Part shown: positions 42,301-45,300 of the stretch, in pieces
Numbering within the stretch: position 1 is the stretch's first letter
How the letters are laid out: each line of letters starts with the position of its first letter
Source: Candidatus Cloacimonadota bacterium
GTDB lineage: Bacteria > Cloacimonadota > Cloacimonadia > JGIOTU-2
Assembly (NCBI GenBank): GCA_049903315.1
Contig: JBNGBT010000012.1
Span: forward strand, 26,556-90,555
Direction of reading: 5' to 3'
Length of the DNA: 64,000 nucleotides
Position numbers: made by a program

Positions 42301-45300
42301 TTCCAATATCCATTCCCGAAATTGAACAATCATAAATTATTGAAGTTCCACTCAATTTATATATTCCATACCCATTCTGGGATGTATTCTCTATAATAAA
42401 ACCATATACATTAGCTCCATAGTAGTTTGTTATATATATAGTTGAATTGCCAGAACTTGTGATAGTCGGATATTGTGTTGCATATTTCATGAGAGTAATA
42501 TTCTTGTTAATTGTTACAACTTCCGTGTAAGTCCCGTATTTTACTTTAACTGAATCACCTGTCGAAGCTGCATTTATACCTGCCTGGATAGTTGTATAAT
42601 CACCACTGCCATTCCAGTCAACAATAATTGTATCAGCTAGTCCAATTGTTGTTATTAACAGCTGGAATGCTGTTATCAAAATTATTTTTTTCATTTTTCT
42701 CCTTGTTTTCTGTGAATACATTAACTCTTAAAAGAGCAACCCATAATACATATCCCACAACATCATATTCATTCTAATCTTATCCAGTTGAATACTCATA
42801 TTCCTTGCACCCCACTATTCCCGGGAAACGGAATAGTAAGGTAGGAATTAAGGAATTTATTTTTCCCGAGAATTGATAATGTTGTATTTGTGTTGTATTT
42901 TTCATTGTTAAAATATATTTTGTTATAGTAACTTGCATAATATACGTCAGTTACCAAATTCAAATGGGGGGGGGGGGGTAAGTCCTCCCAAAATATTTTT
43001 CCAATTATCTTTTGTTGCCATCATATTTTTTCCTTTGAATAGATTGGTGAGAATTGCAATTTGCTTGTCAAATTTTTTGCAAAGGAAAATTTAGTATTAA
43101 TAATTCTCTTGCCCAAAAAAAAATAATTTATCCATTTTTTTGTATTAAATGAATATATTTATGCTTCCCTCATTTTTATTGACAACATATCTTCTTGACA
43201 GGGACTTTTCCTTATTTGATAAGGTGAAATATGAAACGACGAGAAGCAAGAGAAATCGCAGTTCAGATGCTGTACGGACTTTACTTTGAGGAGATACCTG
43301 AAGATCAATCCTCTTTCGGGCACCTTTTGGAACAAAAGTTCAATGAAGCAATATCCGTCAATGAGATTACCTTTACTCTTGACGAAAAGGAATTCTGTAT
43401 CGATCTCGTAAAAAACACATATTTACATCTGCAGGATATTGACGAACTTATAATACAGTTTTCAAAAAAATGGTCATTTGAAAGGATCAATATCATCGAA
43501 AAAAGTATTCTCCGGCTTGCAGTTATGGAAATTGAATATTCTGATATTCCCCAAAAAGTAGCGATCAATGAAGCGGTTGAACTCGCAGAAGATTTCTCGG
43601 GACAAAGATCAAAAAAATTCGTGAACGGCATCCTCGATGCTGTTATGCACAGGGAAAAGAACAATGATTAATGTAAGTCTTGGCATTTTTGCCTATAATG
43701 AAGAAAAAAATATCGGGCAGCTTCTCAAGGCAGTTGAAGAGCAGGTTTTCAAAACTGTTGAGCTGAAAGAGATAATTGTGGTCTCCAGCGCTTCGAAAGA
43801 CAGAACAGATGAGATCGTGCGCGAATACGAGAAAAAAGACCCGCGCATAAGACTCATTGTACAGGAAGAAAGAAAAGGCAAATCGTCAGCAATCAATCTC
43901 TTTTTGAAAGCTGCAACCGGAGATATTCTCATCATAGAAAGCGCAGATACGATCCCTGCCAAAAATACGATCGAGAAACTCGCATCACCTTATTATGATG
44001 ACACTATCGGCATGACGGGTGGACGCCCCGAACCCATTAATAATCCCAAAAGCTTTATTGGATTTGCTGTGTGCATGATGTGGCGTTTGCATCATAAGAT
44101 GGCAATGATCTCCCCAAAACTTGGAGAGATGGCATCCTTCAGAAATATCGTGAAAGAAATTCCCGAGCACAGCCCGGTTGATGAAGCAAGCATCGAGTCT
44201 ATCATCACGCATAACGGACTGAAACTCAAATACATTCCGGATGCCATCGTGCATAACAAAGGTCCTGAAAATGCATCGGATTTCCTCAAACAGCGCAGGA
44301 GAATTTATACCGGGCATTTGTGGCTGCAGGAAAACCAGGATTATACTGTCGTGTCGCAAAACTCGGGCTTGATAATCGGCTTGACCATGAAGGAATTTTC
44401 CCTCAATCCCATAAAGGATTTGAAGATCATCTATACGATGCTGCTTGAGATATGGGGACGCTTCCTCGGCTGGTATGATTACAAAATATTAAAGAAAGTT
44501 CCCTACAAATGGGAAATCTCTGAATCTACAAAAGATTTGAGCAAGTCATAAATAAAATGAAAAATAAAAGCAATTTAAGCACAGAAATTGAAAAGCAACT
44601 CATAACTTACCTTGTGAATGCCGGAGCACGAAAGATCGGAGTTTTTGGATCCTATGCTCAAGGTTGTGCTGGTACGTCGAGCGACATTGATCTTCTTGTG
44701 AAATTTGCAGACATTAAAAGCCTGCTTGAACTTGTGAAAATTGAAAGAGAATTAACAGAATTGCTACATATAAAAATAGACCTTCTGACCGAAAATTCTA
44801 TAAGCCCCTTTTTAATTGACAGAATAAAGTCGGAAGAGCAGGTAATTTATGAAAACTAAGGATGATTTAGTTTATTTGCAGCACATTTTGGATTCGATCA
44901 AATGGATTGAAAACTATATCTCAGATTTATCTCACGAGCAATTTCTCAATAATCATCTCGTGCAAGACGCAGTAATTAGACAGATTGAAATAATCGGTGA
45001 ATCATCTAAGAAAATACCAGATTCACTTAAACAAAAGTATTTATCAATTCCATGGAAAGACATAGCAGGGCTGAGAGACAAGCTCATACATGGATATTTC
45101 GGAGTAGATATAGAAGCAGTGTGGAAAACAGTGAGTACTGACATCCCATTATTAAAAACACAAATTGATATTATAATTAAAAACCTATGAAAAGCATAAA
45201 ACTCCTCCTGAAACTTATTTTTCTCCGCCTTTCACGCCAGCTCTATCAGAAGATCATGCTGCCTGTAAACTACACTGTGAGCGTGACCTACCGCTGCAAT

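Follow-up and report, generated by a model that had tools for sequence, protein, structure and literature searches.

Layout of the locus

The window, a stretch of 64,000 nucleotides from a Candidatus Cloacimonadota bacterium, carries on its minus strand a leader element that is flanked by nusB (43231-43671, plus strand) and by two large genes of the secreted type (Table 1). The initial annotation had seen T9SS cargo genes behind the leader, three of the four for beta-helix proteins, which agrees with the presence of a beta-helix and a Por_Secre_tail domain in the window cargo. TIGR04183 is matched at or above its cut-off in both cargo genes, which likely form one operon, and the SprA and PorV families of the T9SS machinery score above cut-off in the genome. 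The TTGACA box, the Shine-Dalgarno (SD) sequence and the ATG that head the leader are confirmed, all on the minus strand, and a scan of the window leader found no consensus -10 element at 16-18 nt from TTGACA.

The leader ORF opened by this ATG runs into a C13 homopolymer. In its present state it terminates soon after the tract, and it would enter a long open frame if the tract lost one C or gained two. The GGAGG ahead of the tract may be an internal SD-like word or the partner of a CCTCC.

Table 1. Features of the leader locus and of a distant member of the same family in the window
Feature	Position	Strand	Remarks
TTGACA, -35-like box	43066..43071	-	marks the 5' limit of homology between copies
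Leader-ORF SD-like AAAGGA	43031..43036	-	
Leader-ORF ATG	43024	-	
Leader ORF as found (out of frame), 25 aa	42947..43024	-	stop 105 nt ahead of the hairpin; predicted OFF/low
GGAGG	42984..42988	-	kept as nucleotides directly before the tract in 17/18 copies
C13 homopolymer	42966..42978	-	sets the reading frame; longest C/G run of the genome
TAACTGA	42947..42953	-	7-nt word with the stops of both out-of-frame states
Long open frame, 55 codons	42796..42963	-	from the tract through the hairpin; stop overlaps the ORF2 ATG (ATGA)
ORF1b, 52 aa, second stop-free frame	42780..42938	-	conserved ATG 8 nt behind the out-of-frame stop
K-N-K-F codons in the long frame	42853..42864	-	20 nt ahead of the hairpin; sole peptide-like conservation
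13-bp hairpin without U-tract	42809..42842	-	3' arm ends in SD-like GGGGT (42809-42813)
ORF2, 23 aa	42728..42799	-	ATG 9 nt past the SD-like word of the hairpin; ribosome-binding region predicted to be sequestered in the folded leader
Conserved GGGA word	42752..42757	-	candidate partner of the hairpin loop in a weakly supported pseudoknot
Cargo-gene SD AAGGAG	42699..42704	-	predicted accessible
Cargo gene 1, beta-helix protein of 759 aa, T9SS type A sorting domain at its C-terminus	40415..42694	-	ATG 42694
Cargo gene 2, 737 aa, choice-of-anchor Q and T9SS sorting domains	38139..40352	-	
Distant member	60256..60512	+	TTGACA 60256; ATG 60301; C10 60352-60361 (out of frame); K-N-K-F-T-stop 60458-60475; hairpin 60481-60512

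Copies of the leader in the genome

A BLAST search of the whole genome with the window leader returned three further full copies and one partial one. The four full copies that had been listed before (contigs C3, C69, C66 and C44) are thus recovered, the other three being 84, 82 and 77 % identical to the window copy, and their tract lengths of 13, 10, 8 and 11 C were read correctly. A fifth copy, on C33, consists of the hairpin only, and a weak sixth lies on C55 (E 0.57). The leader had been drawn out to 43230; homology between the copies stops at about 43085, and the stretch 43090-43230 is not common to them. At three of the four loci homology continues into the 5' end of the cargo gene. As had been reported, the element corresponds to no Rfam family: Rfam 15 gave seven matches at E<=10, all far below the gathering score. 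C or G runs of at least eight nucleotides occur 18 times in the genome.

At five loci of the genome the leader stands ahead of a pair of large secreted-type genes. To call it a general leader class for T9SS cargo nevertheless goes too far. At least 150 sorting-domain matches in the genome compare with five hairpin leaders (E<=0.001) and one distant member, so that only a small subset of the cargo can be under the control of the leader.

The tract sets the reading frame of the leader ORF

For comparison between loci, positions are counted from the start of the hairpin (0). After identical leaders had been collapsed and eight loci without the hairpin pattern set aside, 30 distinct hairpin leaders were available, 21 of which have a C-tract leader ORF. 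Four of these 21 are in the long frame (L003, L035, L039 and L049), 11 are one base off and six are two bases off. The leader ORF ends at about -105 to -112 when out of frame, as against -8 to +52 when in frame. In each of the four genome copies a frame of 51-55 codons leads from behind the tract through the hairpin. This long open frame is absent from the initial annotation, and the “mini-ORF” described there is the out-of-frame state of a leader ORF of about 74 codons. Phase variation had been considered doubtful since all tract lengths give PPP, an objection that misses its target because it is the frame behind the tract that shifts with length. Moreover, the tracts are not all C8-C13: tracts of C6-C7 and interrupted tracts exist (L030, L035, L041), and lengths reach C18 in distant loci.

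Conservation of the long frame was followed in a gapless set of 17 copies, from which L059 (an in-frame 3-base insertion), its twin L046, L041 (a 1-base insertion) and the distant L049 were excluded. Mean identity over -107 to 0 is 64 % in this set. Between these positions the long frame has a stop in none of the 17 copies, while frame 0 has 65 stops distributed over all 17. Neutral simulation along the tree led to an expectation of 11.7-12.5 copies with a stop, and the zero-stop outcome was obtained in none of 340 runs. The pN/pS ratio of the leader is 0.91 over -107 to 0. Upstream of the tract it is 1.2, and the N-terminal part is thus not conserved as a peptide; of the residues that had been named as kept, GG is indeed present in 17 of 18 copies, WKN in 13 of 18. 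These alignments indicate that the long frame is selected and that its peptide mostly is not, being neutral apart from the motif K-N/T-K-F. Exceptions to the scheme are L041, in which the one-base insertion falls between tract and motif, L116, which has a stop inside the long frame, and L035, which is in frame and no longer has a cargo gene.

A second frame, ORF1b, is also free of stops in all 17 copies, where about 13 copies with a stop would be expected even with the long frame held open. Fifteen copies have its ATG at -97 and one has it at -94; the remaining copy has none. The frame is kept open in this subfamily only (4 of 29 distant loci). In four related copies (L034, L038, L055, L062) the frame-0 stop overlaps the ORF1b ATG, which suggests a stop-restart coupling that perhaps provides a basal level when the leader is out of frame.

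The hairpin and the ribosome-binding sites behind it

The “invariant 14-bp hairpin” of the initial annotation turns out to have a stem of 13 bp that varies among copies. Over 29 sequences 96 % of the cells are paired, seven pairs vary on one side and one on both, and RNAalifold agrees with this fold. Double-sided changes are few in the leader fold (3 of 25 pairs). In distant members a hairpin occupies the same place with its stem sequence replaced. A U-tract (at least five T in the 8 nt after the stem) was counted in 5 of 67 cases, with stem ends taken from minimum-energy folds, some of which include a lower stem. On the sense strand of the window no intrinsic terminator was called.

In the subfamily the 3' arm of the hairpin ends in an SD-like word 8-9 nt ahead of the ATG of ORF2, a frame of 5-39 codons, and in the predicted fold the lower stem can cover this ATG. 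At the loci found by BLAST the spacing of 8-9 nt is kept in all but L021 (5 nt); the ORF2 ATG of L027-L064 was part of the search pattern, and its conservation there, being circular, was not counted. The mean energy for opening the ORF2 binding region amounts to 19.8 kcal/mol in the 17 copies and to 9.4 kcal/mol when the RNA up to +8 is kept single-stranded, whereas the cargo binding region requires 3.6 kcal/mol under both conditions. Since the ribosome-binding site of the cargo gene is open irrespective of the hairpin, we infer that control of the cargo must act on the transcript. Long-range masking of this site is not supported by the opening energies. C exceeds G in the pre-hairpin stretch of 20 of 21 copies and in the post-hairpin stretch of 0 of 21, the corresponding pre-hairpin figure for distant loci being 19 of 29. 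The genome encodes Rho.

A number of further elements were considered and set aside. Pairing of the hairpin loop into a pseudoknot is seen in 78 % of the cells, with one double-sided pair but eight unpaired cells, and was left as weak. The word CTCTTTTAA was compared with the boxA consensus; its sequence is not conserved and a boxA-like reading was given up. A -1 frameshift at the A run ahead of the hairpin was discarded by inspection, the run being 17 nt from the stem and the resulting frame the wrong one. The genome also has an UpxY-like gene ahead of a sugar-aminotransferase-like gene. Dependence of the leader on a NusG paralogue is not supported, as UpxY-like matches occur alike in pattern-positive and pattern-negative genomes (50 chosen).

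Distribution in the Cloacimonadota

All 13 matches to the hairpin pattern in the genome collection belong to Cloacimonadota, two of them to Ca. Celaenobacter antarcticus. The available excerpts of its description depict Celaenobacter as heterotrophic and anaerobic, secreting hydrolases and peptidases (PMC8542988). Of 21 genomes of the family, nine have members according to a covariance model; for the phylum the figure is 7 of 151. With a pattern blind to the frame (C7, 70-110 nt, motif), 19 of 232 phylum genomes from seven families were found, the 57 overlapping match rows comparing with none in the reversed control; in the largest family the same pattern occurs in 0 of 98 genomes.

Exclusion of same-subfamily and duplicate rows left 29 distant loci outside this subfamily. 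The frame from tract to motif is open in 28 of them, as compared with five and four for the other frames. A hairpin at z<=-3 is present in 23 of the 29 and absent at L096 and L100. The distant tracts measure C8-C18; all tracts examined together cover 6-18 C, with all three frames occupied. Among the 23 distant loci with an SD word the states are represented by 10, 5 (in frame) and 8 copies. The leader N-termini are unrelated to WKNxLGG, and the downstream genes code for other proteins with signal-peptide-like starts (by eye), in a few cases for small precursor-like peptides. One distant member lies in the window itself, ahead of secreted-type genes that begin at 60658, and was found via a scan of all C runs (Table 1). 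Relatives without a tract exist as well (L021, L028, L029, L036, L047, L048, L052, L070, L077, L089). In most of them the leader ORF is read in the KNKF register and either stops between -8 and -1 or extends into the hairpin; the tract-less forms may represent locked or differently controlled versions.

Variation in tract length

L046 and L059 are identical across 1,900 nt except for C11 in one and C12 in the other. This pair, the sole same-locus length difference found, could be due to real variation or to a consensus or sequencing difference. Other loci recovered in several records have equal tracts, and these records may share data. The C13 of the window is not an assembly slip, as shown by the contigs of 4 of the 20 listed runs: all four, from four studies, each a possible source of this DNA, and with a depth of 20-169, agree without an indel, so that no tract variant was seen at the window locus. 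Since contigs drop rare variants, the uniform C13 reflects the dominant allele and is not proof against switching.

A putative phase-variable attenuator

We propose, with a probability of roughly two in three, that the leader acts as a leader-peptide attenuator made phase-variable by slipped-strand mispairing. Its most likely role is that of a heritable on/off switch set at random, and not that of a proline sensor. This reading builds on the anatomy, the selection on the frame, the three states, the codon bias and the conservation of the motif. The leader ORF, headed by a promoter-like box and an SD/ATG, reads into a poly-C tract. By frame arithmetic, one tract length in three would allow the ORF to go on for about 40 codons through K-N-K-F and to end at the foot of the hairpin, inside it or just past it, while with the other two lengths it would stop some 105-110 nt short of the hairpin. 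We infer that slipped-strand mispairing alters the tract length in cells and thereby places each operon, heritably and at random, in an ON or an OFF state. A ribosome that reaches the hairpin would block its folding, free the masked start of ORF2 and let transcription enter the two-gene secreted-protein operon; with no ribosome there, the transcript would be stopped or destroyed at this point. Given an open cargo ribosome-binding site and a hairpin that is not followed by a U-tract, silencing is most likely achieved by factor-dependent termination (Rho- or Nus-assisted) or by decay, and not by masking of the cargo site. With the residue that follows F in K-N-K-F-(I/T/L) placed in the P site, the leading edge of the ribosome would come to lie at the first base pair, and the motif may, more speculatively, slow the ribosome there. 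The window copy with its C13 is out of frame and is predicted to be in the OFF or low state.

ORF1b speaks against such a switch. Its translation would direct ribosomes to the hairpin when the leader is out of frame, cover the C-rich stretch and blur the difference between ON and OFF; ribosomes on the C-rich stretch would also argue against simple Rho loading. Tentatively, the proposal can be widened to a modular, phylum-wide cassette: a heritable poly-C switch might gate a new nascent-peptide pausing motif (K-N/T-K-F-I/T/L), which would hold the ribosome on the hairpin lacking a U-tract and thereby permit transcription, and the stop-restart ORF would add a third, intermediate level.

Relation to known systems

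In the literature found, leader-peptide phase variation has been demonstrated only for the pili of Streptococcus gallolyticus. According to the available excerpts of that work, the repeat number at pil1/pil3 places the end of the leader peptide inside a terminator or at a distance of 4 or 49 bp ahead of it, translation up to the terminator raises transcription, and the switch logic is proven in this organism (PMC3894217). The Cloacimonadota leader has in common with it a leader ORF with its own ribosome-binding site that contains a simple sequence repeat, and a repeat number that determines whether the ORF ends far from the stem-loop or at and within it. Going by the same excerpts, the short state ends far upstream of the stem-loop and the long one just before or within it in both cases, the cargo downstream is a surface or secreted protein, and the peptide sequence is largely irrelevant (PMC3894217). 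The differences from pil1, as far as the excerpted text describes that locus, concern the repeat unit (a C mononucleotide versus GCAGA pentamers), the frames that reach the hairpin (one of three versus two of three) and the U-tract (none versus 6 T) (PMC3894217). Again with reference to this partial account, the Cloacimonadota leader is set apart by a hairpin predicted to mask the SD and AUG of a second mini-ORF, by K-N/T-K-F at a fixed distance together with a restart ORF in a second frame, and by its multi-copy, phylum-wide occurrence; the likeness is one of anatomy and no sequence relation is expected. Since the U-tract is missing and the homopolymer, the masked ORF2 and the motif are added, the leader is not placed as a member of the pil1 type.

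With tnaC, speFL, cruR and mgtL, as presented in the excerpts at hand of a recent review, the leader would share the principle that a ribosome on the leader ORF decides on read-through, the presence of Rho and a short peptide motif, which in many cases directly precedes the stop codon; these systems, however, answer to ligands, and their reading frame is fixed (PMC12360218). The phase-variable Rho examples in the same excerpts involve invertible DNA and not repeats (PMC12360218). No homopolymer leader-ORF attenuator, NKF arrest motif or phase variation in Cloacimonadota was found in a literature search that left most subscription journals and supplements outside its reach.

Homopolymer contingency loci inside surface-protein genes are known from Neisseria, Campylobacter and Helicobacter. 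They resemble the present tract in being poly-C/G runs of 8-18 nt whose length shifts the frame and differs among copies. In contrast to them, the Cloacimonadota tract resides in a separate leader ORF that is never fused with the cargo in hairpin-bearing copies, and the cargo gene keeps its own open ribosome-binding site. If the attenuator operates as proposed, leader-peptide phase variation would also be a feature of a phylum that is free-living and uncultured, could rely on single-base tracts and on a hairpin unlike a classical terminator, and would allow a portable shuffling of surface and secreted proteins that leaves the genes unbroken. Switches located in leader ORFs escape scans for repeats in promoters or coding regions.

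Other explanations

An unlikely alternative to the switch is recoding without a change in the DNA. Ribosome or RNA polymerase would slip on the C run, helped by the GGAGG, and a fixed fraction would enter the long frame as a constitutive or condition-tuned leak. CCC-N codons are known for +1 slippage, and the stability of C13 across four runs would be in keeping with this idea. The GGAGG 5 nt ahead of the tract in 17 of 18 subfamily copies fits as well but is not evident by eye before the tract in most distant loci. Similarly, copies that would require a +1 shift are the most frequent (11/21; 10/23), but the pooled split of 21:9:14 among 44 is not clearly uneven (chi-square about 5, p about 0.08). 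Finally, programmed shifts fix one frame, whereas three frames and tract lengths of 6-18 occur here.

There is also a slim chance that the core of the element is K-N-K-F itself, acting as a nascent-peptide pause or arrest module that answers a cellular signal, with the C tract as an optional gate; this would be compatible with the switch. K-N/T-K-F is present at -20 or -21 of the long frame in 40 of 40 loci, which had been collected by BLAST, hairpin pattern or model, and versions without a tract exist. With the loci registered on the motif itself by a degenerate pattern, the four codons have a pN/pS of 0.08, as opposed to 2.06 and 2.09 in the other two frames (40 loci); the flanking codons give 0.87 and 1.09. 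After dereplication from 41 loci to 16 (<72 % flank identity), the third codon positions remain more variable than the other two (exact p=0.014), but most of their changes are transitions. In the lower stem, moreover, the F codon is able to pair with the ORF2 start, so that the conservation may have its cause at the RNA level, and the varied cargo genes suggest no ligand. If the four residues do work as a peptide, they would constitute a new arrest or pausing sequence.

The polyproline-stalling attenuator of the initial annotation, whether sensing EF-P or Pro-tRNA, is highly improbable; what stands of that proposal is a translated cis-acting leader ahead of secreted-protein operons. Attenuation at proline codons is known from mgtP. 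The genome contains an EF-P-like motif, and every C-tract copy encodes one to four consecutive Pro. Proline-codon leaders such as mgtL also figure in the review excerpts mentioned (PMC12360218). The run was said always to be PPP: at least three Pro are encoded in 11 of 21 copies, whereas the other 10 lack PPP, and the C66 copy has two Pro only. Of the four mini-ORF peptides that had been quoted, two are absent from the four copies of this genome, and their closest matches (L031, L039) read Pro-Pro-His. The non-final Pro codons of the runs are almost all CCC (35/39), a codon that accounts for 5,624 of 27,731 Pro codons (20 %) in 1,489 long ORFs genome-wide. There is no amino-acid conservation around the tract, the Pro run lies about 125 nt from the hairpin, beyond the touch of a stalled ribosome, tract-less relatives have no Pro runs, and the open long frame is left unaccounted for. 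A Pro run selected as amino acids in a fixed frame is therefore rejected on the PPP count, the CCC usage, the three frames and the pN/pS of 1.2 upstream of the tract. Judged by codon usage and alignment, the homopolymer and not the Pro tripeptide is the conserved entity.

Passive duplication of a promoter and 5' UTR that belong to paralogous genes and are devoid of any regulatory role would agree with the homology that extends into three of four cargo genes and with a pN/pS near 1 over most of the leader ORF, but is a remote prospect in view of the stop-free frame relative to simulation, of nine viral-contig matches judged to be chance (five distinct, with the frame open in 1/5 and no comparable hairpin), and of a layout that is kept with unrelated N-termini, hairpin sequences and cargo in seven families.

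Further members of the leader family

The window carries a second member of the leader family (see the table), whose sequence is unrelated to that of the main window copy and whose C10 tract corresponds to the out-of-frame state. It is followed by a secreted-type gene of 110 aa and by a second gene that is broken into ORFs of 542 and 143 aa overlapping at 62677-62680, the T9SS sorting domain being confined to the 143-aa part. Outside the window, the first cargo gene of the C66 leader (L014) of the source genome is divided by a frameshift into ORFs of 346 and 254 aa; a relative, at locus L038, forms one ORF of 625 aa.

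G035, a genome from another family, contains eight leaders of this type (L101, L116, L125-L130) with tracts ranging from C9 to C18. A C12 run on contig C44 of the source genome has no K-N-K-F frame downstream of it and, on present evidence, falls outside the family.

Coordinates of the leader, the C run and other genes discussed in this part
Feature	Location	Strand	Remarks
Overlapping 100-aa and 113-aa ORFs	window 44557-45190	+	arrangement as in an MNT-HEPN toxin-antitoxin pair
Presumed citrate-lyase-like beta and alpha subunit genes	window 48675-51418	+	
Second leader-family member and downstream genes	window 60256-63108	+	C10, K-N-K-F-T-stop, hairpin
UpxY-like NusG paralogue	G000 C9:1183-1728	-	NF033644, 100.5 bits
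C12 run within a short ORF	G000 C44:10994-11005		outside the leader family on present evidence

Leader variants and small-peptide cargo

Three leader variants (L005, L011 and L013) lack the hairpin and have an interrupted tract. At L005 the stop codon of the leader ORF overlaps the ATG of the cargo gene (ATGA), which has no SD, while at L013 the stop of a short ORF overlaps an ATG that shares its frame with the cargo; at L011, leader and cargo are both frameshifted. In front of the leader ORF, six loci (L021, L028, L029, L049, L089 and L092) share a conserved word, TTTTGAGTGG(T/C)G..GTCACAAAA, which may represent an operator or another type of promoter.

Small peptides are encoded downstream of the leader at L077 (G017) and L111 (G012), the former having 46 aa, a Gly-Gly and a Cys-rich end. 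Judged by eye, both look like RiPP precursors. Similar visual inspection of locus L117 picked out a possible maturase-like gene farther downstream.

Other genes

From the appearance of their sequences, we take the overlapping 100-aa and 113-aa ORFs of the window to be nucleotidyltransferase-like and HepT/DUF86-like, respectively. The first of the presumed citrate-lyase-like genes apparently carries a fused acyl-carrier part. Elsewhere in the source genome, the UpxY-like NusG paralogue immediately precedes a gene that is presumably sugar-aminotransferase-like, and similar matches are found throughout the phylum.
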